Shown: positions 2,963-33,509 of the stretch, in pieces
Layout: every line of letters begins with the position of its first letter
Position numbering within the stretch: the first letter of the stretch is position 1
Assembly (NCBI RefSeq): GCF_024298765.1
Contig: NZ_CP101210.1
Reading direction: 5' to 3' (one strand)
Source: Escherichia coli
Lineage (GTDB): Bacteria > Pseudomonadota > Gammaproteobacteria > Enterobacterales > Enterobacteriaceae
Length of the DNA: 64,000 nucleotides
Notes under the pieces: model-generated
The model's input: only the letters and a program-made list of their open reading frames with translations
Databases searched by the model: none
Told to the model about the DNA's origin: nothing
Translations under genes and position numbers: made by a program

Positions 2963-3230
2963 CTTTTGCAATATCGTTGCGTAGCTGTTCACGTCTTGCC
3001 TCTCCGTCCTGATTGCGTTGCTGATTTTCCACGCGGAGTTGCGCCAGCACCTGCTGCATATCCTGTACCCCGGCGCTAATGATATTCAGGGTGTCGGCGG
3101 TACGTTTCAGGGTGCTGGCCTGCGCTTCGTTTCTGGCGTTCTCCCGGCCCAGCGACCATGACAGACGCATGGATGTTCCCCATGCGGCAATCAGAAGGAA
3201 AGCGACACCCAGCGTGGGCCAGAGCTTCAT
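2823..3230 (-). CDS. i-spanin (LysB/Rz-like), start at internal Met49 of the track ORF
   Basis: ATG at 3230 overlaps the endolysin stop (ATGA); N-terminal TM (LWPTLGVAFLLIAAW) followed by a charged coiled-coil-like region. Confidence 0.6.
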   Translation of the reverse strand: MKLWPTLGVAFLLIAAWGTSMRLSWSLGRENARNEAQASTLKRTADTLNIISAGVQDMQQVLAQLRVENQQRNQDGEARREQLRNDIAKDECAHALPDARFTDRLRRHAERATASAVSPAYTADADHTGNASPLP

Positions 3231-3619
3231 GCCGGATAGACTCCGTGTGGTAACTGAAAATGCGGTCCGTCTTTCAGGGTCTTCCAGTCGCCGCCCCATT
3301 CCACCGGAATATTCAGCTCCCGGCTGGCCTGTCTGAATGCTGCTGCGATTTTTTCGTACAGCGGCCATTCCCATGACACCTGGCTGCCGATATAAGCCAC
3401 AACATCCACGGCATGTCCCGTAAGGTGGCGGCTGTTCATGGTCTGGCTCTTACCTGTGGCCACAAGTTGCTTCTGGCGGTAACGGCTGCGCAACCCTTCG
3501 GTGATACCAAAATCCACTTCCGAAATTTCCAGTGCCCGTCGGGTCACTTTCACCAGATCAGGATTTACGCCCTGCAAATTCTTTTCGCTCCGGCTGCTGA
3601 ATTTAAATGTGTTGCTCAT
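3227..3619 (-). CDS. endolysin, peptidase M15-like (L-Ala-D-Glu / D-Ala-D-Ala peptidase type)
   Basis: 130 aa with SRHLTGHAVDV zinc-peptidase-like motif; sits between holin and spanins. Confidence 0.7.
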   Translation of the reverse strand: MSNTFKFSSRSEKNLQGVNPDLVKVTRRALEISEVDFGITEGLRSRYRQKQLVATGKSQTMNSRHLTGHAVDVVAYIGSQVSWEWPLYEKIAAAFRQASRELNIPVEWGGDWKTLKDGPHFQLPHGVYPA

Positions 3620-3939
3620 TCGTCCTTCTCCTTCCCCCTGCGATTAAAGGCCGCAATAACCTTGTCGCGTGCTTTCTCTGCGCCCATAAAACCGATTGAT
3701 GCGCCGATAAACGTCACGGCATCTTCAGGAAACCCGAAGAAGCGCAACGACCCGGCCACGGCCATGGCAAGAACGCCGCACGCCAGCGATCCCGTTACGG
3801 TCTGAACCAGTGTTCGTCCGTCATAAAGACTCATCAGCGCGGAAATGCTGACTGCCGCGCCTACTGCATACACCGTTGGCAGGTGGTCAAAGAGCCACGC
3901 AATAACCTGCTCTGTGATCCCTGTTTGAATGGTGCTCAC
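3616..3939 (-). CDS. holin (GTG start inferred)
   Basis: GTG at 3939 preceded by GGGAG, 2 nt after X stop; about 108 aa with hydrophobic TM segments and a charged C-terminus; overlaps endolysin start. Confidence 0.55.
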   Translation of the reverse strand: MSTIQTGITEQVIAWLFDHLPTVYAVGAAVSISALMSLYDGRTLVQTVTGSLACGVLAMAVAGSLRFFGFPEDAVTFIGASIGFMGAEKARDKVIAAFNRRGKEKDE

Positions 3940-3941
3940 TG

Positions 3942-4148
3942 CTACTCCCCCCACAACTGAATCATTTCTCGTTTCTTCTTCTCCGGCTCCGGCATCTCCA
4001 CGTCCTGCCCGGCGTCCAGAAATACCTGCTGACAGAGTCCGGGGTTGGCATCCAGCACCTTTTCGGTGACGCCCTGCGTCGTGCCGTAGTACCGGAAACA
4101 GAGCGAATCCACGGTGTCGCCTTCCAGTGCCTTCACTTTCATCAGCAC
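3942..4148 (-). CDS. tail protein X (gpX-like)
   Basis: 68-aa ORF between L and the holin, P2 order L-X-Y. Confidence 0.75.
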   Translation of the reverse strand: MLMKVKALEGDTVDSLCFRYYGTTQGVTEKVLDANPGLCQQVFLDAGQDVEMPEPEKKKREMIQLWGE

Positions 4149-4645
4149 AACTCCGCAAAAATTCGCGGGCGGCGCAGAATGTCAGAGATGGCCCAGCTCA
4201 CATCGCGCCACAAATCCGATGTCTGTATATCCAGTGCGTCCGCCCGGCGGTCGCCCTTATCCGTTGTGTCCGCATCGCGGTAACGCTCCAGAATCAGGGC
4301 GCGTGTGGCGGTATAAACGGCATTGCGCCAGTGCCAGAGATTGACGCTTTCTCCGTTAATTACGGGTGCCGGAACATCGGCCAGCGTCTGATGGCCAGCC
4401 GCCTGCTGTTCCTGCTGCCATGCTTCCAGCTCGCGGGTAACGTGAGCCACCGCCCCGGTGGCGGTATGCAGCAGGCGGGAGGTGGTCACGCGCCCCGGCA
4501 GTCGTACCGCCAGACGCAGCTCACGCAGCACAATATCCGGCCAGAATGCACCCGCTGAAATACGGGTATCACCATCATCGGTATCGGTGATGTCGTCCTC
4601 TGCGGGTCCGGGGTTGGTTCTGGCAACCATACTCATGGGGTTCAC
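4142..4645 (-). CDS. head completion/stabilisation protein (gpL-like)
   Basis: 167-aa ORF following terminase small subunit M as in P2. Confidence 0.8.
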   Translation of the reverse strand: MNPMSMVARTNPGPAEDDITDTDDGDTRISAGAFWPDIVLRELRLAVRLPGRVTTSRLLHTATGAVAHVTRELEAWQQEQQAAGHQTLADVPAPVINGESVNLWHWRNAVYTATRALILERYRDADTTDKGDRRADALDIQTSDLWRDVSWAISDILRRPRIFAELC

Positions 4646-4737
4646 TCCTGAAAAAATCGGGCGGTGGGTGCGCGGTGTAAACGGTCACGGAGTCAAACCG
4701 GAACACCGCGCACGCCGCCCGCTGACGGGGTCAGTCG

Positions 4738-5538
4738 TTAACCGCGCTTCGCCTTCTGCGTCGCGGTGGTTTTTCGTGTTGCAGGCTTCCGCGTTGTCTT
4801 TTTACTTTTGCTGCTTTCGTTCTGCGCCTGTGGTGTGCTGGCATCTTCTGGTGCGGCTGCGGAATCGGCTTTTTTCAGAGCGCGGGAAAGGGTTGCAATC
4901 TCGCGTTTCACACCTGCGTTCGGGTTCAGGTGCATCGCTTCGCGCAGCAGCTTCAGTGATGAGGCCATGCTGTCCGCATCGCTCAGGCTACGGCGGGCAA
5001 AGGCGCACGCCTTGCATAATTTGGCTCGCACTTCGTCCGGCATATCCTGGTTGGCGACAATTTCCCAAAGTGTGTCCAGTGGTTCGATAAAGGCGGACAA
5101 ATCCGCGTCGGCATCCGTCCCGGCCTGCGTCAGTACCGGGTTGCAGATTTCTTCGGTCAGTACCGTGGCAGCAGTACGGCCAAAGTTATCCGGCATGATG
5201 AGGTTGTGACGGACCACATACGCACCAATACGCAGCGCAAGCGGAAGATCGCCGCAGTCAATTGCCCACACCATCAGCGTGGCAATCACTTCATCCTGCT
5301 GCCCGCCGTCAGCCTCCAGCGTTCCCTCAATCCAGCCGGAAAAGTCCGGCAACAACTCTTTTTTGATGGCGGCTTTCGCGCTTCTGGCCTGTACCCCCTT
5401 AAGTCGGGCCTGTGCCAGACGCAGACGATACAGCACCTCTTCATGCGCGGTACGCGCGGCGTGGTCCACGCCTTCATTCGCCCGGCCTGCGCGCTGTGCC
5501 ATCACGTTCTGCCAGTGTTGCTGTGCAGGAGTAATCAT
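4738..5538 (-). CDS. terminase small/endonuclease subunit (gpM-like)
   Basis: 266 aa; N-terminus and MPDEVRAKL segment match the remembered P2 gpM; lysine-rich C-terminal tail. Confidence 0.85.
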   Translation of the reverse strand: MITPAQQHWQNVMAQRAGRANEGVDHAARTAHEEVLYRLRLAQARLKGVQARSAKAAIKKELLPDFSGWIEGTLEADGGQQDEVIATLMVWAIDCGDLPLALRIGAYVVRHNLIMPDNFGRTAATVLTEEICNPVLTQAGTDADADLSAFIEPLDTLWEIVANQDMPDEVRAKLCKACAFARRSLSDADSMASSLKLLREAMHLNPNAGVKREIATLSRALKKADSAAAPEDASTPQAQNESSKSKKTTRKPATRKTTATQKAKRG

Positions 5539-7650: not shown

Positions 7651-9402
7651 ATGATTCAGGACGCTTTTGTGCGCCAGCGTGCGCGACAACTTTACTGGCA
7701 GGGTTATCCGCCCGCAGAAATATCACGTCTGATGGGAATAAACCCGAACACGATTTATGCGTGGAAAAAACGCGACCAGTGGGATGAAACGCCACCCGTG
7801 CAGCGTGTCACGCAATCCATTGATGCGCGCCTCATCCAGCTTACTGAAAAACAGAATAAAACAGGCGGTGACTTCAAGGAAATAGACCTGCTGACACGGC
7901 AGCTTAAAAAGCTGCATGATGGCCAGCCGGATGTGATTGCCGCAGGAAAGAAAGGCCGGGCGAAAAAACTCAAAAATCATTTCACGCCGGAACAGATTGC
8001 CGCACTGCGGGAAAAAATCATCAGCAGGCTGGAGTGGCATCAGCGGGGCTGGTTTGACTCCCTGACCCTTTGCAGGGAAGCCGGGATACGTAACAGGATG
8101 ATCCTGAAATCCCGACAGATTGGGGCGACCTGGTATTTTGCACAGGAAGCACTGCTGATGGCGCTGCGTGACGATGTGGTGCAACCTTATCAGCGTAACC
8201 AGATTTTTTTGTCTGCGTCGCGTCGTCAGGCGTTCCAGTTTAAAAGCATTATTCAGAAGGCCGCGGCTGAAGTTGATGTGGAGCTGAAAGGGGGCGATAA
8301 AATCATCCTCTCCAACGGCGCAGAGCTGCATTTTCTCGGCACTTCTGCTGCGTCGGCACAGTCCTATACGGGCAATTTTTATTTTGATGAATTCTTCTGG
8401 GTCAGTCGCTTTGCTGAACTGCGCAAGGTGGCTGGCGCTATGGCAACCCTCAGCGGACTGCGGCGCACCTACTTCTCCACGCCATCCACCGAAACGCACG
8501 AGGCATACGCCTACTGGAACGGCGACCGCTGGAACGAGAAAAAGGCCACGCATAAACGCCAGCGTTTTTCTGTGGACTGGAAAACGCTGCATAACGGGCT
8601 TATCTGCCCTGACCGGACGTGGCGGCAAATTGTCACGCTGGAAGATGTGGTTAATCACGGCTGGAAACACACCGATATTGATGAAATTCGTGATGAAAAC
8701 ACCGAAGACGAGTTCCTCAATCTCTATATGTGTGAGTTTGTCCGCGAAGGGGAATCGGCATTTAACCTGAATATCCTGATTGGCTGTGGTGTTGACGGAT
8801 ACGACGACTGGAAAGACTGGAAACCTTTTGCTCCCCGCCCGATGGGGAATCGCCCGGTATGGATTGGGTATGACGCAAATGGCAGCAGTGGCAACGGCGA
8901 CAGCGGCGCTGTGTCCGTGGTGGTTCCTCCGGCTGTTCCTGGTGGCCGTTTTCGAACGGTGGAGACGCGACGCGTTCAGGGGCTGGAGTTTGAAGAACAG
9001 GCCAGAGTCATTGAAGAGTTCACGTGTCGCTACAACGTGGAACACATCGGCATTGATGTGACGGGCGGGAACGGGGAGGCTGTTTATCAGATAGTGAAAC
9101 GGTTTTTCCCTGCCGCTATTCCGTACACCTTCACGCTGTCATCAAAACGGTCGCTGGTACTGAAAATGCTGCAAATAATGCGTGCAGGGCGGTGGGAATA
9201 CGATCGCGCCGAACGCGAGCTGGTCGCGGCCTTTAACGCCGTGCGTAAGGTGAAAACACCGGGCGGCTTTATCACTTACGAAACGGACCGCGCGAGGGGG
9301 ATCAGCCACGGCGACCTTGCGTGGGCAACCATGCTTGCTGTCATTAACGAACCAATTGGCGGCGAAGGAGAAAACGAGCGTTTCACGGTTATGGAGTTCT
9401 GA
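7651..9402 (+). CDS. terminase large (ATPase) subunit (gpP-like)
   Basis: 583 aa, divergent from O, followed by portal with 1-nt overlap, as in P2 P-Q. Confidence 0.85.
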   Translation: MIQDAFVRQRARQLYWQGYPPAEISRLMGINPNTIYAWKKRDQWDETPPVQRVTQSIDARLIQLTEKQNKTGGDFKEIDLLTRQLKKLHDGQPDVIAAGKKGRAKKLKNHFTPEQIAALREKIISRLEWHQRGWFDSLTLCREAGIRNRMILKSRQIGATWYFAQEALLMALRDDVVQPYQRNQIFLSASRRQAFQFKSIIQKAAAEVDVELKGGDKIILSNGAELHFLGTSAASAQSYTGNFYFDEFFWVSRFAELRKVAGAMATLSGLRRTYFSTPSTETHEAYAYWNGDRWNEKKATHKRQRFSVDWKTLHNGLICPDRTWRQIVTLEDVVNHGWKHTDIDEIRDENTEDEFLNLYMCEFVREGESAFNLNILIGCGVDGYDDWKDWKPFAPRPMGNRPVWIGYDANGSSGNGDSGAVSVVVPPAVPGGRFRTVETRRVQGLEFEEQARVIEEFTCRYNVEHIGIDVTGGNGEAVYQIVKRFFPAAIPYTFTLSSKRSLVLKMLQIMRAGRWEYDRAERELVAAFNAVRKVKTPGGFITYETDRARGISHGDLAWATMLAVINEPIGGEGENERFTVMEF

Positions 9403-10448
9403 TGAGCAGAAAAAATAAAAAAGTGCGCATGAGTTCACGCATTGATCTCGCTGATGCGCTCAGGAAAGAATCATCGCTCAGTGCATTCACATTTGATGGT
9501 CCTTATCGCCTGACCGGGCATGACCTGCTGGACAATATGTACTGTGCTGATAACGGGCGGTGGTATGAAACCCCGGTGGACTGGTACGGTCTGGCAAGAG
9601 CCGCCCGGCAAACGTCCTGGCATCAGTCTGCGCTTTACTTTAAGCGCAATGTATTACTCGGTTGCTACATCCCGCACCCGCTGCTTTCCCGGCAGGATTT
9701 CTCGGCGCTGGCGCTGGACTGGTTTGTGTTCGGTAACGCATTCCTTGAGCTTCGGAGCAATATGCTCGGCGAACCGCTTAAATTACGGCACGCCCTGGCG
9801 AAATACATGCGACGCGGAAGCGATCTTGAATCATGGTGGTATGTGCAGGATGGCAAGGACGCGTTCCAGTTTCGCCCTGGCAAAGTGTGCCACCTGATGA
9901 ATCCGGATATTAACCAGGAAATCTACGGCATGCCGGAATATCTTGGCGCATTACTCTCGGCCAGCCTTTCTCATTCGGCGGACATGTTCAGAAAACTGTA
10001 CTACGACAACGGATCCCACGCCGGGTGCATCATCTACATCGGTGCAGCGCAGGTAAACCGCGAAAGCATGGACTCCCTGAAAGAAACGTTACAGGGTGCG
10101 CGTGGTGGTGGTGCATTTAAAAACGTGCTCATTCATGCGCCCAACGGGGGCAAAGAAGGGGTGCAAATTTTGCCGTTCCAGCAGATCACCGCAAAAGATG
10201 AGTTCATGAATGTTAAGGCGGCATCCCGTGATGATGTGCTGGCTGCGCACCGCGTTCCGCCGCAACTGATGGGGGCGATGCCGGGCGAAAAAAGTGCGTT
10301 TGGTGATGTGGAGAAGGCCGCGCGGGTTTACGCAATTAACGAGCTGATGCCCGTCATGGAGGCCATGAAGCACATCAATGACTGGCTTGGCGAAGAGGTG
10401 ATCCGCTTTAACCCTTACGCACTGTTAGACACCCAGCCCACATCCTGA
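9402..10448 (+). CDS. portal protein (gpQ-like)
   Basis: 348 aa, size and position match P2 gpQ; last morphogenesis gene before the cos/cargo region. Confidence 0.85.
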   Translation: MSRKNKKVRMSSRIDLADALRKESSLSAFTFDGPYRLTGHDLLDNMYCADNGRWYETPVDWYGLARAARQTSWHQSALYFKRNVLLGCYIPHPLLSRQDFSALALDWFVFGNAFLELRSNMLGEPLKLRHALAKYMRRGSDLESWWYVQDGKDAFQFRPGKVCHLMNPDINQEIYGMPEYLGALLSASLSHSADMFRKLYYDNGSHAGCIIYIGAAQVNRESMDSLKETLQGARGGGAFKNVLIHAPNGGKEGVQILPFQQITAKDEFMNVKAASRDDVLAAHRVPPQLMGAMPGEKSAFGDVEKAARVYAINELMPVMEAMKHINDWLGEEVIRFNPYALLDTQPTS

Positions 10449-10872
10449 CGCGCTTCGCTTGTCTGCTGCTTCGCCGGGGCATAAAAAATTTATGCCCCGA
10501 CTCTCCAGCTCCTGTATCAGTCAGATAATTTCACGACGCTTTCCTGCTGATTGCCATCATCGACAGTCAGACTCTTACGCAATCCCACCGCGTTGACTGC
10601 ATGTTCTCGCCGTCTCAGTGCGATTTTGACGGCCTTACCTTTCACCCCATCAAATCAAAAGCCCTCACGTCTTTTTCACGCTCAGCGTGAGAAATACAGC
10701 CATTCTGTTGTGTCGCTGCGACATCGTTCAGGGGATGCTATTTACCCCCTGAAACGCGGGCTGTTCCCCCGTCACCTGCGCGCAGAAAAAATGCGTTTTT
10801 TTGTGCACGCACGGATCCTTGACGGATCCAGCCACCATGCGGGCCGGAAGGGCAAAAAGTCGTTCAAAAAAA

Positions 10873-10899
10873 TTGTGCAAATTTGTGCACTATTGTGCA
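10873..10899 (+). promoter_or_regulatory. three direct TTGTGCA repeats at 10-bp spacing with a nearby TATAGT; candidate operator/promoter of the cargo operon
   Basis: TTGTGCA at about 10873, 10883 and 10893 (a fourth copy near 10801); TATAGT at about 10904; about 80 nt upstream of the cargo ATG. Confidence 0.35.
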
Positions 10900-10978
10900 T
10901 TTGTATAGTGAAAAAAATATAGCAGAAAGTATACTTAGCGCCTTGTGGGCTACGTTAACTTTGCAGGAACATTTGGAA

Positions 10979-12358
10979 ATGAAAAAAATCAATAAAGAAG
11001 ATTCTAAAAGAACCTTTTTACGTGGATGGTTGCGATTTCTTCGTAGCGTTGAGAGAGCTAAGAAAAAAAAGCCTGCGCAAGAGAAAAATGGTAGTCTTCG
11101 TTTTTCCGATGAAACAACTCCTGTCCAAAACCAAGTCGCTACGTTCATTGAAAATATATCGATTATAAAAGAGTATGACTCATCAATTCTTCGTCGTGAC
11201 GCAGAGAAGATATTAATACCTAAATATTTTGACTTATATGACAATCCAGAGAAATCTCTGCTATTTATTAGTGCAGCCACAAAATTAATTGCAAGAGGTA
11301 AATGGAAATCATATATTTTTGATTACAAGAAAAACAAAAAACACTGTCTTGGTCTTGAGTGTCTATTAGGTGTTGCTCTTACAGCAGCAAGGCAAAGTAA
11401 TATAAATTTCAAAGATACGATGATTCAGATTAATGGTATCTACCCTAAAGATGAACAGTATCTTGAAATTATCAGGGATGTCGGGCTTGTAAAAGAGATT
11501 AGTAATGCTGCACCAGGTAAAGTTCTGGACTCTACTGAAGCATCGAAAAAAGCGAATCCGAAGAAACGAATCTTCTCTGCTGATAGTATCGGAAAGGAGA
11601 ATGCTTCTGCCTTTGCCCATGACAGAAAAAATGTCACTGCTGAAAAATTTACCGCATACATAAACGAATGCTTAAATGATCATAATTTAAAACTTGTACA
11701 TGAGGCAGAAAAGCATTTAACTTCCTGCATGGGGGAACTCCTTGATAATGCGGAGCGGCATTGTGGGTTAGAGCAACGCCCACGCTGGTATTTGAGAGGT
11801 TTTGTTAATAATAACGTACGAAACCCCATATGTGAGTTGGCTGTTTTCAATTTTGGGAAAACTATCAGCGAAACTTTTGATAATTTACCTGAGGATCATT
11901 TTTCATTAAGTCAACAAGTTAATCCATACATAAATAAGCATATTAAGAAAAAGGGTATGTTTAAGGAAGGATTAACAACAGTAGCGGCCTTGCAAGGGCG
12001 GGTGAGTTGTAAAAACGAGAAAGAAACTGACAGTTCTGGCACCGGAACAATTGAATTATTGAAGTTATTTCAAGATATGCATGATAATCTTAAAAAAATG
12101 GGAAGAGATATTAAAGGTGGGATAAAAATGACTTTAATATCTGGTAGTACTCATATTAACTTTGATGGATCATATAAATTAAAGCAAAGGTTGGTTAATG
12201 ACGAGGAAAGTGACATTTTTACTTACCCTTTTAATGATGTAGGGCTTGAATCTGAACCGGATCGCAACTATCTTAAGCGTATGAAGGATGCTCGATTTCC
12301 TGGAGTTATGATCAATATTCGTTTTCCTCTACCAGAAAACGCCACCCAGCGAACTTGA
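10979..12358 (+). CDS. cargo gene 1: GHKL-type ATPase / anti-sigma-factor-kinase-like protein, 459 aa from ATG 10979
   Basis: N-box-like ELLDNAERHCG, possible degenerate G1 (FNFGKT) and G2 (SSGTGT) boxes; AT-rich; AGGAA 8 nt before ATG; the track start at 10883 is a TTG. Confidence 0.6.
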   Translation: MKKINKEDSKRTFLRGWLRFLRSVERAKKKKPAQEKNGSLRFSDETTPVQNQVATFIENISIIKEYDSSILRRDAEKILIPKYFDLYDNPEKSLLFISAATKLIARGKWKSYIFDYKKNKKHCLGLECLLGVALTAARQSNINFKDTMIQINGIYPKDEQYLEIIRDVGLVKEISNAAPGKVLDSTEASKKANPKKRIFSADSIGKENASAFAHDRKNVTAEKFTAYINECLNDHNLKLVHEAEKHLTSCMGELLDNAERHCGLEQRPRWYLRGFVNNNVRNPICELAVFNFGKTISETFDNLPEDHFSLSQQVNPYINKHIKKKGMFKEGLTTVAALQGRVSCKNEKETDSSGTGTIELLKLFQDMHDNLKKMGRDIKGGIKMTLISGSTHINFDGSYKLKQRLVNDEESDIFTYPFNDVGLESEPDRNYLKRMKDARFPGVMINIRFPLPENATQRT

Positions 12359-12368
12359 GGACAGGTAC

Positions 12369-12713
12369 ATGAAAATGGCTGACATCACCATAGATTTCAA
12401 TAAGTTAGTAAAAGATAGTAACAAGAAACTTTTTGCTGGACGTTCTAATGGGCGCCAGGCCTATGATTACTTTAATATAGGGAAATTTTGCACAACCAGT
12501 AATGATAGATTATATCTATTGATCCCCAAGGGAATTGTTGTATCAAGCTCATACTTTCTAGGTATGCTTGAAACGGTTTTGCCGAAATTTTCTTCGCCTA
12601 GCGAATTTTATAGTCGCACTGTACTTGATGGTCGTGAATATAAAGAAGGTATGCTTTCTGAATTAGATAGAGCTGTAAGGAGAGGCTTACATAAAAATGT
12701 TCCCTTCTTTTAA
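12369..12713 (+). CDS. cargo gene 2: small STAS-like (anti-sigma-factor-antagonist-like) protein, 114 aa
   Basis: GAGGA 8 nt before ATG, overlapping the stop of gene 1; segment LLIPKGIVVSSSYFLGMLETV recalls the SSSF-type STAS-like signature. Confidence 0.55.
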   Translation: MKMADITIDFNKLVKDSNKKLFAGRSNGRQAYDYFNIGKFCTTSNDRLYLLIPKGIVVSSSYFLGMLETVLPKFSSPSEFYSRTVLDGREYKEGMLSELDRAVRRGLHKNVPFF

Positions 12714-13506
12714 AAATATTTTTCAAATCAAAATGACAGCGCTGTCTGTCATTTTTTTTATATTCCCCGCAGCTTGCTCTGTGACAGATTTTTCCAATAA
12801 AGAAAACATTGAATGTAATGAGTCACTTTATCCAAACACGCCTTTTTATATTTCCGATTCAGGACTTAGTGGTATATCATCACCGTTTTTGTTATCCGGA
12901 AACCCGAATGATGGCTTGATGTTTTGTGAAAAGGCAAACGACACCTTTCATAAGTTATCTCTGGCAAGGGATAACAAAAAAGATTTATTTACTAATTATT
13001 TCAAAGATGTTCCAAATTCCTATGATATATATAATATTGTAAAGGTTCCGGAAAATGGTCCAGAGTGGATTTCTATTGGCATCTCTTTATTTGCTTTAGT
13101 TTCATCCTTTGTTATTCCTTGTGTTCAACATAGAAAAGAACGTAAAGAAGCTATTAATGAAGGGTATTGGGTAAGAGAAGTAATTATGCCTAAAATTAAT
13201 GGGTTGGCATTCGATGTTGTGCAAAGTTTTAAAAACTCCATGGCATTATCAGAAGAGGAGTTTCTTAGTGTATTCAGTAATACTCTTTTACCAAAACTAG
13301 GAGAGTTACGGGATTCATTATATTTGTTTAATAGTTTTCCAGAATTAAATGCAGATATTGAAAATCTAGAAAGTATTTGTGACTCCTTGGAGGAAGAAGT
13401 TTCCAATCATATAGACTCGCCTAATGAAATAAGAATTTCTGATATATCAATGTTTCATTCCAAATTAATACAGAAATTAATTTTACTTCATAAGAAGATA
13501 GGTTGA
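12697..13506 (+). CDS. cargo gene 3: membrane protein, candidate effector (N-terminal signal/anchor, one internal TM, acidic C-terminal domain)
   Basis: Overlaps gene 2 by 17 nt; hydrophobic N-terminus TALSVIFFIFPAAC and TM WISIGISLFALVSSFVIPCV; AT-rich. Confidence 0.6.
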   Translation: MFPSFKNIFQIKMTALSVIFFIFPAACSVTDFSNKENIECNESLYPNTPFYISDSGLSGISSPFLLSGNPNDGLMFCEKANDTFHKLSLARDNKKDLFTNYFKDVPNSYDIYNIVKVPENGPEWISIGISLFALVSSFVIPCVQHRKERKEAINEGYWVREVIMPKINGLAFDVVQSFKNSMALSEEEFLSVFSNTLLPKLGELRDSLYLFNSFPELNADIENLESICDSLEEEVSNHIDSPNEIRISDISMFHSKLIQKLILLHKKIG

Positions 13507-13551: not shown

Positions 13552-16344
13552 CTATCGTGTTCGATGCAATAAACTGATTTTTTTGCGAGCATGTTTAGTG
13601 GTTTCACTGATTCTCTGTGCGTGCTCTGCGTCGCGGATGGCGCGCAGCATGTCAGAAAGTACGGTAACGGGTGTTTTCATGGTGTTCTGGTCTTGCTGAA
13701 GTGTGGATGCCAGGCGTGCGGCGGCTTCAGGGTCTGATGCCTCTAGTTGTTCCAGATAGCTGGCGACCGGGTTATGGCGGATCTCCGTGCTGCTTACGCC
13801 GTGATTACGACTCAGGCGTTGCCAGAGCTGCGTGATTCGGCTGTCCGGGCGGGTATCCTGTTTGCGTACAATTTCAAATCCCTGCGGTGCAATGATGCTG
13901 CCGCCAACGTACAGACTGCCGCCTCGTAACAGGTGCTGCATCTGCTGTTCACCGATATGCAGGCCGAGAGATTCAGCAGACTCCCGCCATTCTTTAGCGA
14001 GTAACTCGTGGTTATCAGGCAAAGGCTGTGGCTGTTTGCGGCTCTGTGTCCAGTTCTGCATTTCATCACTGCTGTTTTTTGCCTGTTTGTCACGCAGCGA
14101 ACGCATCAGTGCCCGGCGTTCGTGCCGTTTCAGTGAGCGCATCCATTCATTCACGTCAACGCCTTCAGGAAGCCGCGGCCACGGTGCTGGCCGTTCTTCC
14201 GGCTGTTCTGTCCCGTTGTTGTCCGTTTCCTGTACACGGGGACAGTTATTGCCACGAGTCCAAGGGGCGGCAGGGCCGCCCTGAAGGTCAAAACCATTTT
14301 CGCGGGCGCTGTCTTCCGTTTCCGGTTTACGTCTTACCAGTTTCCAGTTATCCGGATGCGTGCACACACGGGAGGATTCCCCGATGAGTGGTGACCAGAT
14401 CCCGTAAATCTGTACGCTCTGTTCGCCGTAATCATTCAGCTCATCTGCGAGGTCGTAGGCGGTGCGAATCAGGTAGTCTTTGCGTGGAACAAGTACGCCG
14501 CCCTGTTTTTCAATGTAGGTGGCAAAACACCCGGCATCGGCGGCAGCGAGTACCGCATCCATTGCGTCATCTTTCAGTCGTTGCGGGCCTTCCGGGTTGC
14601 GTGCCATCTGGCTGGCAAGGCGGCGCAGTTCACGCCACACCTGACGGGAGGGGATGCCAAAGAACTGGAACTGGCGGACCCGATGAAGGCGCGCCCAGCC
14701 GATGGCGCGCTCCACACTCTCGGCCATTGATTTTCCGGTTTCGTGGTCAACGCGTGGCTTGCCCGTTTTCGGGTCGATGCCATCCACGGCGCGGCTGTCC
14801 AGGTTCTTTCCGATGTAGGTCGCGATATAGCTGGTTGGTGTGCCTTTTGAGCCGTCGACATACTCCGCCTTAAAGCGCGGAGTAATATCATTGCCCAGCT
14901 CGTGGCGGTCTTCCTGAATGGCAATATCGCGGGTGATGGCCACGATGCTGTCGATTTCTTCCGGATGAGCAAAGACCATCATATGCCAGTGCACGGTGCC
15001 GTCATGGTGAGGCTCCACCGTGCGGATGCCATACCAGCGAAGACCGTCGCGGTTCAGTTTTTTGCGGACCGCCGCAAAAAACGTGTTAACCAGGTAATCG
15101 CTGGAGTCGCGCATGGTGGCCCCGTTCCATTTGGGATTCGGATGACCGTTCTCTGTTGTGGCGTGGTATTTTGACGGGCAGGTGACAGTCAGAAACACCG
15201 CTTTGTCGCCACGGGCTTCGGCCAGAAGTTCCAGCCCCTTCATGGTGGCCATCATTTCTGCCTTACGGTGAACCGGGTTACTTACTCCCGCGTAATACAC
15301 CGTCTCGAGATCAATCGTGAACCCGTCTTCGTTTTCCAGCATGAAACTTTTCAGGAAATCGCGTGTTTTCTCGCGCTGTGCGCGAAACTCGCTTAACGCG
15401 TCCTGGCTCAAATAGGGCGATGTTTTTCTGGAAACCAGACAGGCGGCGCGGAGTTGTTCTTCTCTCCACTCGCAACGTAACAGCCACAGTTTGCGTTTCC
15501 ACCATTCCGCACAGGTCAGGCGAAGGATTGCGCCCGGCAGCAGTTCTGTGTCCGGTTCGTTCCTCCGGTCTTTGTCTGTTGTCAGTGCGTCATAATGCGG
15601 AGGCATGGCGTGCAAGTGTAACGCCATGCGGGCCAGCATCTGATACGCCTTCAGCGTTACATCCATGGTCAGCTCGCCATCGGTCGCGCCAAAACCATCG
15701 CAGAGTTTTTCGAAGGTGCTGCTGAACATCGCCGCCGTCATGGTGGCCAGCGTCTGTATCTGGTGTTTGTTGAGTTGCGGCAGGTAAAGCAAATCGTCCA
15801 GGCGTTCACGTCCGGCAAGGGACCGATAACCCGGTGTCAGCCAACGGCTGTCGGTGCGGTCCAGACGTACGAATATTTTGCGCAGGGTTCCGCGCGCGTA
15901 GCGTTCAGCCTGCCAGCTCTTTTTGCCTTTCTGACGATCGGATTCCTGTTTTTTGCGCAGGAAAGAGAGGTGGCGGCTCAGAGGTTCACGCAGATAAACG
16001 GGAAGCACCTTCAGTGTGGCAAAAGCACGGGCCACCGGGTCTTGTTCTGTTGCCTGACGCTTGCTGATGATGCTTTGTGCCAGCTTTTCACGCTGTCCGG
16101 CTTCCTCAAGGGATGCCATGAGTTTTTTACCCACGGTGGATTGTGCGAAAAAGGCTTCCTCCTTCGCTTCCTGTTCTTTCCGGGCCTTTTTGTCCGCCTC
16201 AAGGTAGTAACGGATGGCGCGTTGCAGCTCGGTTTCAGTTTCCTGCCTGCGCTCCGTAAATCTGTCCGGATCAATGGCTGGCCGTGGTTCATTCCAGCTC
16301 CATGCAAACTCACTCATGGCTGGTATCCCGTCACGCGCTGCCAC
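13552..16344 (-). CDS. replication initiation endonuclease (P2 gpA-like, rolling-circle HUH type)
   Basis: 930 aa with HWHMMVFAH HUH-type motif; position between early genes and cargo as P2 A. Confidence 0.8.
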   Translation of the reverse strand: MAARDGIPAMSEFAWSWNEPRPAIDPDRFTERRQETETELQRAIRYYLEADKKARKEQEAKEEAFFAQSTVGKKLMASLEEAGQREKLAQSIISKRQATEQDPVARAFATLKVLPVYLREPLSRHLSFLRKKQESDRQKGKKSWQAERYARGTLRKIFVRLDRTDSRWLTPGYRSLAGRERLDDLLYLPQLNKHQIQTLATMTAAMFSSTFEKLCDGFGATDGELTMDVTLKAYQMLARMALHLHAMPPHYDALTTDKDRRNEPDTELLPGAILRLTCAEWWKRKLWLLRCEWREEQLRAACLVSRKTSPYLSQDALSEFRAQREKTRDFLKSFMLENEDGFTIDLETVYYAGVSNPVHRKAEMMATMKGLELLAEARGDKAVFLTVTCPSKYHATTENGHPNPKWNGATMRDSSDYLVNTFFAAVRKKLNRDGLRWYGIRTVEPHHDGTVHWHMMVFAHPEEIDSIVAITRDIAIQEDRHELGNDITPRFKAEYVDGSKGTPTSYIATYIGKNLDSRAVDGIDPKTGKPRVDHETGKSMAESVERAIGWARLHRVRQFQFFGIPSRQVWRELRRLASQMARNPEGPQRLKDDAMDAVLAAADAGCFATYIEKQGGVLVPRKDYLIRTAYDLADELNDYGEQSVQIYGIWSPLIGESSRVCTHPDNWKLVRRKPETEDSARENGFDLQGGPAAPWTRGNNCPRVQETDNNGTEQPEERPAPWPRLPEGVDVNEWMRSLKRHERRALMRSLRDKQAKNSSDEMQNWTQSRKQPQPLPDNHELLAKEWRESAESLGLHIGEQQMQHLLRGGSLYVGGSIIAPQGFEIVRKQDTRPDSRITQLWQRLSRNHGVSSTEIRHNPVASYLEQLEASDPEAAARLASTLQQDQNTMKTPVTVLSDMLRAIRDAEHAQRISETTKHARKKISLLHRTR

Positions 16345-33080: not shown

Positions 33081-33509
33081 TTAATCTCCCGTAAGTGGAA
33101 CTAACAGCACATCGACCTCACTTGAGGCAATCACTCTTTTCGCCGAGCAGGATGCTCGCGAAAAGAAACTGTGATTGTGATTACCGCAAATCACCAAATC
33201 GAAATGATATTTGCGACAAACTTCCAGAATATGTTCGCTTAACTCACCGTAGGCAATAAACGTCTTGTCAACGGGATACCCCGCATCCTGAATTAACTTA
33301 TCAAGAAAGCTTTGCGTTTCTTCCTGCATCACGCTGCGTAAATCTTCAAGCATCGGCGCAGCTAATTGATTGTACATTTCCGGGTCGGAAGCGAGAGTAA
33401 TTAAACTGATGTGTCCCTTTACTGGCCTGGCGATAGATACCGCTTTTGCCAGCAGTTGCTGACTTTCCGGTGTAACCGCAACAGCGACAAGAATATTGCT
33501 ATAGCTCAT
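33081..33509 (-). CDS. uspC: universal stress protein C
   Basis: 142-aa Usp-family ORF convergent with otsA. Confidence 0.85.
   Translation of the reverse strand: MSYSNILVAVAVTPESQQLLAKAVSIARPVKGHISLITLASDPEMYNQLAAPMLEDLRSVMQEETQSFLDKLIQDAGYPVDKTFIAYGELSEHILEVCRKYHFDLVICGNHNHSFFSRASCSAKRVIASSEVDVLLVPLTGD

Follow-up and report, generated by a model that had tools for sequence, protein, structure and literature searches.

In phage lambda, cosB holds the gpNu1 sites R3, R2 and R1 and the IHF site I1, one near the cut and the others distal to it, over about 120 bp, a layout that would allow bent DNA and an oligomeric small terminase to put the nuclease together. To our knowledge, no binding sites have been mapped for a P2-type terminase. 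Here, we analyse an array of phased TTGTGCA repeats in a stretch of 64,000 nucleotides of Escherichia coli (contig NZ_CP101210.1, hereafter the window), which carries a P88/P2-like prophage (Peduoviridae, P88/Xuanwuvirus-like) with terminase, portal, cohesive-end site (cos), cargo and gpA. The repeats lie between cos and a three-gene cargo cassette, and an original prediction made from the sequence alone took them for operator sites of a promoter belonging to that cassette. We favour, with moderate confidence, another explanation built on sequence comparisons: the repeats, which are in phase with the helix, would be an accessory element of the packaging signal at cos and not a part of the cargo, and they are probably read by the terminase.

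The closest described systems share some, not all, features of this locus. Like lambda cosB, the window has several copies of a short site, all to one side of the cut and no more than about 150 bp away (four sites, +28 to +126; offsets are those of the start of TGCA, counted outward from the cohesive end). Yet, there is no sequence similarity, and the distal sites of the window are three direct repeats one turn apart, 72 bp from the proximal one. The IHF consensus WATCAANNNNTTR, allowing at most one mismatch, has no match in 10740-10930 (0.19 expected), and an IHF site between the proximal and distal sites, as found in lambda cosB, was thus rejected for this interval. The site bound by the HK97 small terminase spans +15 to +29 from the cos cut and covers an A-tract (PMC11331095). 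The proximal T-run and TGCA of the window (about +20 to +31) are equally far from the cut and likewise include an A/T tract. However, HK97 requires just one 15-bp site whereas the P2 family adds a phased distal array, and the terminase family of HK97 differs from that of gpM (Phage_term_smal). In phiCTX, a P2-family phage, the GenBank record NC_003278 ('region 3') annotates repeats R4-R6 across cos, and CTGCA or CTGCG words occur at +25, +34, +80, +96 and +106 from cosR, although their spacing is less regular than in the window array.

The comparison is closest with P2 and its satellite P4. There, as in the window, cos lies between the portal gene Q and the hotspot or gpA, and combines a cohesive-end-like sequence with a T-run hairpin and, at +26 (+28 in the window), a proximal TGCA, which forms the outer edge of a block of about 55 bp common to P2 and P4. 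The window differs in that its three phased repeats lie 65-95 bp outside this 55-bp core, where P2 and P4 have nothing else in common (34% ungapped identity), and in that the P88-lineage cos matches that of P2 at only 13 of 19 positions. According to the available text of Rousset et al. 2022 (PMC9122126), P2-like phages have a cos-adjacent defence hotspot between gpQ and gpA. The cargo of the window sits exactly there, between gpQ/cos and gpA. The accessible passages of the hotspot papers do not define the cos-side edge of the hotspot, which here falls at position 10900.

The array itself is real and beyond chance, and on this the original prediction was right. TTGTGCA occurs on the plus strand at 10801-10807, 10873-10879, 10883-10889 and 10893-10899, the distal three copies being exactly 10 bp apart, and TATAGT follows at 10904-10909, 5 nt after repeat 3. 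The distal part reads ...TTCAAAAAAA TTGTGCA AAT TTGTGCA CTA TTGTGCA TTTG TATAGT G... The heptamer as such is not enriched, with 11 copies in the window against 16.4 expected, and four of the 11 are clustered within 99 bp. The window has a single triple of identical 7-mers at 9-12 bp spacing, and 200 dinucleotide-preserving shuffles gave no such triple. In related viral contigs the conserved core of the repeat is (G)TGCA. The bases flanking the 4-bp palindromic TGCA differ among lineages, and an A-tract stands before or after the first distal site in most of them.

These repeats are placed relative to a putative cos in the 530-bp intergenic region between portal and cassette (10449-10978), which corresponds to the placement of cos in the P2 family, between the portal gene Q and the non-essential region or gpA. 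The cohesive end is probably 10758-10776. It has the same position and is followed by the same TGCGCGC as in Klebsiella intermediates (...CCCCCGCCTCGCC, then TGCGCGC), and a graded series of cos-like sequences runs through Klebsiella and Enterobacter relatives with this flanking TGCGCGC in common. The adjoining inverted repeat holds in its outer arm the proximal TTGTGCAC (10801-10808; TGCA at +28), which is the fourth TTGTGCA of the original prediction. This hairpin is the positional equivalent of the P2/P4 hairpin and TTTTAATGCA at +26; a GC-rich hairpin with TTTT is found beside cos in P2, 186 and P4 as the counterpart of 10777-10811.

Two records of related phages show irregularities around this site. 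Those of Chuche and P88_4B11 have deletions of 7 nt and 5 nt, respectively, inside the putative cohesive end (matching window 10755-10769). Whether these deletions are genuine variation or artefacts of assembly where the cos ends join, they would mark the physical end. We rejected the start of the P88_4B11 record (window about 10854) as a physical end: the repeats resume at the other end of the record, and the start is most likely an arbitrary linearisation point.

Comparison across P2-family phages and satellites places the array at a fixed distance from cos (Table 1). The distance from the proximal to the first distal TGCA is 72 bp, about seven helical turns, in all tabulated lineages, even if flanks cannot be aligned between them. 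Given this gap and the 10-bp spacing, all four sites would lie on one face of the helix. The window follows the right-flank plan as we define it in the present analysis, i.e. a hairpin with a T-run, TGCA at about +26 and then at about +98, +108 and +118. This plan recurs, built from TGC[AGT] or CTGC[AG] words, in Burkholderia Milagro and Pseudomonas phiCTX.

The P2 lineage gives the strongest evidence. From 80 contigs whose portal shares at least 99% identity with that of P2, we obtained 67 distinct right flanks and 44 non-redundant ones. Flanks are mutually unalignable past the proximal TTTTAATGCAGTTGCATGA, with a pairwise score of 0.42 for the +40 to +94 spacer of the 44. Nevertheless, nearly all carry (C/A)ATGCAAAAnnATGCA at +96 to +112. 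Among the 44 flanks, TGCA starts at +26 in 95%, at +98 in 61% (at +97 in a further 16%) and at +108 in 50% (+107, 16%), for a background of 0.4% per position. If one allows for small shifts, 37 flanks have TGCA within +94 to +99 and 32 within +104 to +110, when control windows average 2.7% and never exceed 11%. Such retention of TGCA at a fixed distance from cos within unrelated DNA points to selection tied to cos, rather than to inheritance or to the cargo.

The satellite P4 provides a second comparison. Without gaps, P2 and P4 are 90-100% identical from -30 to +27 around cos and 34% identical further out, in agreement with the '55-bp core' that the available citing texts credit to Ziermann & Calendar 1990. 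The only islands of identity outside this shared core are GGTGCATG and TTGCAT, i.e. the distal array. In P4, the array is on the psu-end side, opposite the P4 hotspot, and no outward-reading gene follows it. P4 is packaged by the P2 terminase (PMC9122126, in its available part). Since the array is a cis element locked to cos and common to helper and satellite, the simplest reading is that it forms part of the packaging signal.

In the P88 lineage the array is the last element before the cargo. A 601-bp query (10400-11000) finds 16 phage records, in which the match starts at the first base of the query and stops at base 500 (window 10899). With a 321-bp query (10640-10960), 1,105 of the 5,426 complete E. 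coli genomes searched give a match, and nearly all of the E. coli matches listed end at query 260-262 (10899-10901). The sequences of phages 500465-2, P88 and Chuche align near-perfectly as far as the last A of the third TTGTGCA, beyond which identity is lost. Among 80 P88-lineage viral contigs, selected for a portal identity of at least 99%, the block is present in 79 and always has three phased repeats; rare single substitutions (TTATGCA, TCGTGCA, TTGTGCG) fall outside the TGCA core or at its last base. Downstream of repeat 3 these contigs show about 20 unrelated classes of cargo junction. Many open directly with a rho-independent terminator abutting the repeat, and for 12 of the 19 classes, or 47 of 64 loci, the nearest sizeable open reading frame (ORF) converges on the repeats. 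In the more distant prophage of strain S1-CAM-02-A, the spacer between Q and cos has diverged and the 10770-10899 block is nearly identical. As judged from these alignments, the repeats are part of the phage backbone and not of the cassette, and the cos-side edge of the hotspot in this lineage is one base after repeat 3.

The recombination boundary itself differs between lineages carrying the same array. In the P88 lineage everything is conserved to +126 and the break comes after repeat 3. In the P2 lineage variable DNA begins at about +40 from cos, and spacer and distal array are swapped with the cargo. We also found that 10640-10960 is 100% identical to the chromosome of E. coli WS1933D (NZ_CP035836.1, 21212-21532).

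How might such an array work? Outward from cos, the signal would consist of the cohesive end (about 10758-10776), the hairpin with T-run and proximal TGCA (10801-10808), a 72-bp spacer and the three phased TGCA sites (10873-10899). An oligomeric packaging protein would bind or wrap the phased sites and so position the nuclease at cos, where packaging would start or finish. The one-turn phasing that led to the original prediction keeps its meaning in one respect, as an oligomeric DNA-binding protein is still reasonable, but this protein is likely the packaging enzyme and not a transcription factor. Candidate readers are the gpM small terminase, the N-terminus of gpP (residues 6-63; window 7651-7840), which is a helix-turn-helix (HTH; Terminase_5, HTH_23), or both; in the gpP-type terminase family, gpM may not be the sole determinant of DNA recognition. 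Bendability or wrapping in one direction may play a part as well, because TGCA alone is invariant and TG/CA steps and A-tracts are phased. If the array has to act in cis and keep its distance from cos, exchangeable cargo could start only past it, which would explain the start of the hotspot at 10900. Longer flanks around the P2/P4 cos raise cosmid transduction more than 1000-fold (available text of PMC9594776), and this effect fits an accessory element outside the cos core. On a separate note, gpP also matches PHROG families labelled small terminase or DNA-binding protein.

Several observations weigh against a packaging role. Conservation in the P88 lineage is explicable by recent common ancestry alone, and the protein partner of the array is purely inferred. 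Seven of the 44 P2-lineage flanks have no TGCA at +94 to +99, the array of Klebsiella ST437phi4.1 is degenerate (TGCG at +90 and +108), and Aeromonas LPM4 has three copies of another word, GATCCTT. In P4, two of the three distal TGCAT words are arms of the psu terminator hairpin, which possibly explains their conservation in this satellite. The conserved cos core is only 55 bp according to Ziermann & Calendar 1990, as cited in the accessible parts of PMC9594776 and PMC5694545. With a core ending just past the proximal site, the distal array may be stimulatory rather than essential. Finally, the data are compatible both with a cosB-like role in initiation and with a cosQ-like role in termination. 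As to LPM4, its three GATCCTT words are at +89 to +121, in place of the TGCA words, and the word is found once more across cos.

One might go further and speculate that the phased TGCA array (+98/+108/+118, 72 bp from +26) is an undescribed second recognition element of the P2-family cos. It would be present in Peduoviridae of hosts ranging from E. coli to Burkholderia, P4-like satellites would have copied it to hijack the helper terminase, and it would fix the inner border of the hotspot. We regard this broader proposal as tentative and, taken as a whole, rather doubtful. The cos-adjacent hotspot, the 55-bp cos core and terminase-binding repeats beside cos (lambda cosB, HK97) are already known. 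The distal array, its 72-bp offset, its presence in P4 satellites and its role at the hotspot border find no mention in the literature accessible to us; key papers of the 1990s fall outside that scope, and a prior description is possible.

Among other explanations, the one that survives best is structural. TG/CA are the most deformable dinucleotide steps, and phased TG/CA steps with A-tracts might bend or wrap DNA, or bind a host nucleoid protein, to aid cos cleavage, circularisation or the handling of ends. The conservation of only the 4-bp palindromic TGCA among variable flanking bases, the A-tract beside the first distal site in most lineages and the helical phase of all sites, including the 72-bp gap from proximal to distal, would all fit. 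But bendability alone would accept TA or CA steps, yet TGCA is strongly preferred, and the region 10740-10930 lacks a match to the IHF consensus at one mismatch or fewer. This explanation is unlikely as an alternative to packaging, with which it also overlaps, as it does not exclude a packaging role.

It is quite improbable that the array serves as a favoured crossover point, or as a boundary, when cassettes are exchanged; it would then be a recombination site that produces the sharp break in homology and has no role in packaging. In more than 1,000 genomes homology does stop right where repeat 3 ends, and the available text of Rousset et al. speculates that cos-proximal recombination drives the turnover of the hotspot (PMC9122126). 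However, the break is at about +40 in the P2 lineage, so that the array lies inside variable DNA and is nonetheless kept at +98/+108, which indicates positional selection and not the scar of a crossover. The P4 array, moreover, is on the side opposite the P4 hotspot.

The original prediction, in which a dimeric or oligomeric transcription regulator binds the repeats to drive the cargo operon, now seems very improbable. Phasing by one turn is typical of operator arrays, and TATAGT lies just past repeat 3. Several P88-lineage cargos on the plus strand, that of the window included, have a similar TATAAA/TATAGT-like hexamer 3-6 nt past this repeat. In the P2 record, the annotated old-tin transcript starts at 33424/33426, which implies a promoter TTGAAT-N17-TAAAAA whose -35 would overlap the third repeat, and a cargo promoter could thus recruit the array for its upstream half. 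Against this, the repeats are there irrespective of cargo (about 20 unrelated ones), most neighbouring genes converge on them and often end in terminators, and both P4 and 186 carry the array without an outward-reading gene. An operator would be expected to keep a fixed geometry, but the distance from repeat 3 to the -10-like hexamers of the cassette varies from about 5 nt in the window to about 24 in S1-CAM-02-A, 25 in Klebsiella (L275) and 45 in another locus (L272). Searches of PADLOC, PHROGs, NCBIfam and Pfam found no HTH or other regulator family in the cassette proteins, a weak negative given that the Pfam scan excluded the 114-aa protein. A consensus scan gave no sigma-70 promoter using the repeats: its sole match, GTGAAA-16-TATACT, is within cargo DNA, and we rejected a promoter with a repeat as its -35 because TTGTGC, 15 nt from TATAGT, is too close.

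Homologous cassettes separate the repeats from the promoter. In other prophages of E. coli, and in those of Enterobacter and Klebsiella, the cassette also lies between portal and gpA and is preceded by the version of the array proper to each lineage, e.g. TTGTGCAAATTTATGCAGAATCTTGCA or TTGTGCAAACTTGTGCATTCCCTTGCA. (These contexts come from the protein database; viral-contig searches with a single protein or a 2-sequence alignment gave only P88-lineage loci.) In Morganella morganii (L270, L271) the cassette is at 3001-5523, its first protein is 83% identical, there is no portal or cos nearby, and the region upstream has no TGCA repeats at all. Yet, this copy retains a leader TTTT-TATAGT-AGAAAAAAATATAATTAAAAG-TATAAT, the counterpart of window 10900-10935. 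Since a copy outside the P2 hotspot keeps the A/T-rich TATAGT/TATAAT leader, the cassette travels among different mobile elements together with its promoter; since it does so without repeats, the promoter is cassette-borne and the repeats are backbone. The claim that the cassette has its own regulated promoter stands as regards a promoter-like region of its own, and falls as regards regulation through TTGTGCA. In the window, 10904-10935 reads TATAGT..GAAAAAAATATA..AAAG-TATACT, and the leader is also kept in the 72%-identical cassette of S1-CAM-02-A. TATACT (10930-10935), about 43 nt upstream of the ATG and a perfect TATAAT in Morganella, is the best -10 candidate, better supported than TATAGT. 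Cargo promoters lie directly against the array and may sometimes borrow it, but this would be opportunistic and not the reason for its existence. The Morganella cassette has as neighbours a phage tail-fibre-like gene and an integrase fragment.

Least credible of all is a weak terminator or insulator keeping cargo transcription out of cos: a scan marks GTGCACAAATTTGCAC and T7 on the minus strand as terminator-like, and two distal copies of P4 are psu terminator arms, but the minus-strand fold (-6.1 kcal/mol, z -0.9) is no better than those of shuffles, 33 of 200 folding equally well, which led us to reject a hairpin role of the distal repeats, the P2 and 186 arrays have no T-run on this strand, and converging cargo genes have strong terminators of their own. 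We rejected three further candidates. No known RNA family matches at its gathering score in Rfam 15. A centromere of the ParR/parC type is at odds with ParM-like genes being found in P88 relatives and not in the window, P2 or P4, and with the repeats not being upstream of parM. A DnaA box or CRP site gives partial matches only (by eye), which are not common to the ATGCA version of the P2 lineage.

Table 1. Features of the window with their coordinates, followed by the offsets of TGCA sites from the cohesive end in P2-family phages and satellites
Feature or lineage	Position	Strand	Remarks
gpM-type small terminase subunit	4738..5538	-	PHROG phrog_74, E 6.6e-82; Pfam Phage_term_smal PF05944, E 1.8e-36
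gpP-type large terminase	7651..9402	+	PHROG terminase large subunit; Pfam Terminase_5 (6-63), HTH_23 (8-41), Terminase_6N, Terminase_6C
gpQ portal protein	9402..10448	+	PHROG phrog_68, E 4e-153; conserved backbone starts here, ends 10899
Putative 19-nt cohesive end (cos), minus strand GGTGACGGGGGAACAGCCC	10758..10776	-	13/19 matches to P2 cosL GGCGAGGCGGGGAAAGCAC
Imperfect 15-nt inverted repeat with T-run, adjoining cos	10777..10811	.	arms TGCGCGCAGAAAAAA / TTTTTTGTGCACGCA; -14.7 kcal/mol, z -2.4
Two exact ACGGATCC direct repeats, 11 bp apart, each with a GATC (Dam) site	10811..10829	+	between proximal and distal TGCA
A7 tract and distal array of three TTGTGCA (10873, 10883, 10893)	10866..10899	+	TGCA +100/+110/+120 from cos; last conserved backbone element
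Cassette-borne leader with two -10-like hexamers, TATAGT (10904-10909) and TATACT (10930-10935)	10900..10978	+	conserved with cassette
Low-GC (31-40%) three-gene cargo cassette, 459/114/269 aa, in cos-adjacent hotspot	10979..13506	+	ORFs, GC profile
gpA-type replication endonuclease; far hotspot boundary	13552..16344	-	PHROG phrog_91, nicking at origin of replication, E 1e-269
P2	proximal +26; distal +98, +108, +120		
186	proximal +26, +32; distal +98, +108, +117/121		
SEN5	proximal +26, +34; distal +98, +108		TGCG at +118
Erwinia ENT90	proximal +26, +32; distal +95/99, +118/122		TGCG at +109
Klebsiella Kp4877-2 and L275	proximal +26 or +35; distal +98, +108, +118		
Satellite P4 and second P4-like clade	proximal +26, +32; distal +98, +108, +121		psu of second clade only 62% identical
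Window, S1-CAM-02-A, Enterobacter L268	proximal +28; distal +100, +110, +120		

Other features of the prophage deserve mention. The ACGGATCC repeats between the proximal and distal sites are kept in the P88 lineage and not in P2. A perfect 11-bp hairpin, CGGGGCATAAA/TTTATGCCCCG, directly follows the stop codon of the portal gene, and the sole match of the Rfam 15 scan was a sub-threshold gyrA motif at 10454-10507 on the minus strand (22 bits, gathering score 45); the hairpin is most likely the terminator of the portal operon and the gyrA match due to chance. At the far side of the hotspot, gpA has 930 aa, against about 760 for P2 gpA as deduced from the coordinates of the P2 record. P88, Chuche and P88_4B11 have ParM-like and partition genes between hotspot and gpA, which are absent from the prophage of the window.

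The cassette is a candidate for an uncharacterised defence system. Its proteins have no match in PADLOC, NCBIfam or Pfam and no sequence match in PDB. Homologues of the first protein are found across Enterobacterales, and one of them has a weak match to HATPase_c_2. The first protein itself has invariant E253..D256-N257..H261 and G354-x-G356 motifs. An AlphaFold model of this protein (pLDDT 78, pTM 0.80) has as its best Foldseek match the GHKL anti-sigma kinase SpoIIAB (probability 0.95-0.97, E about 0.06, TM-score to target 0.6-0.66) and also matches a STAS-type protein.

These results correct the reading of the locus, from cargo regulation to the architecture of phage packaging. They give a base-precise cos-side boundary for the P2 defence hotspot, here at 10900, which is useful for delimiting cargo automatically. 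Cargo promoters appear to be built against the last repeat and, in P2, partly from it. The array is a testable candidate for DNA recognition by P2-type terminases and could explain the more than 1000-fold gain of cosmids with longer P2/P4 cos flanks reported in the available text of PMC9594776, which is relevant to engineered transducing particles. It may also explain how P4 satellites mimic the packaging signal of their helper.

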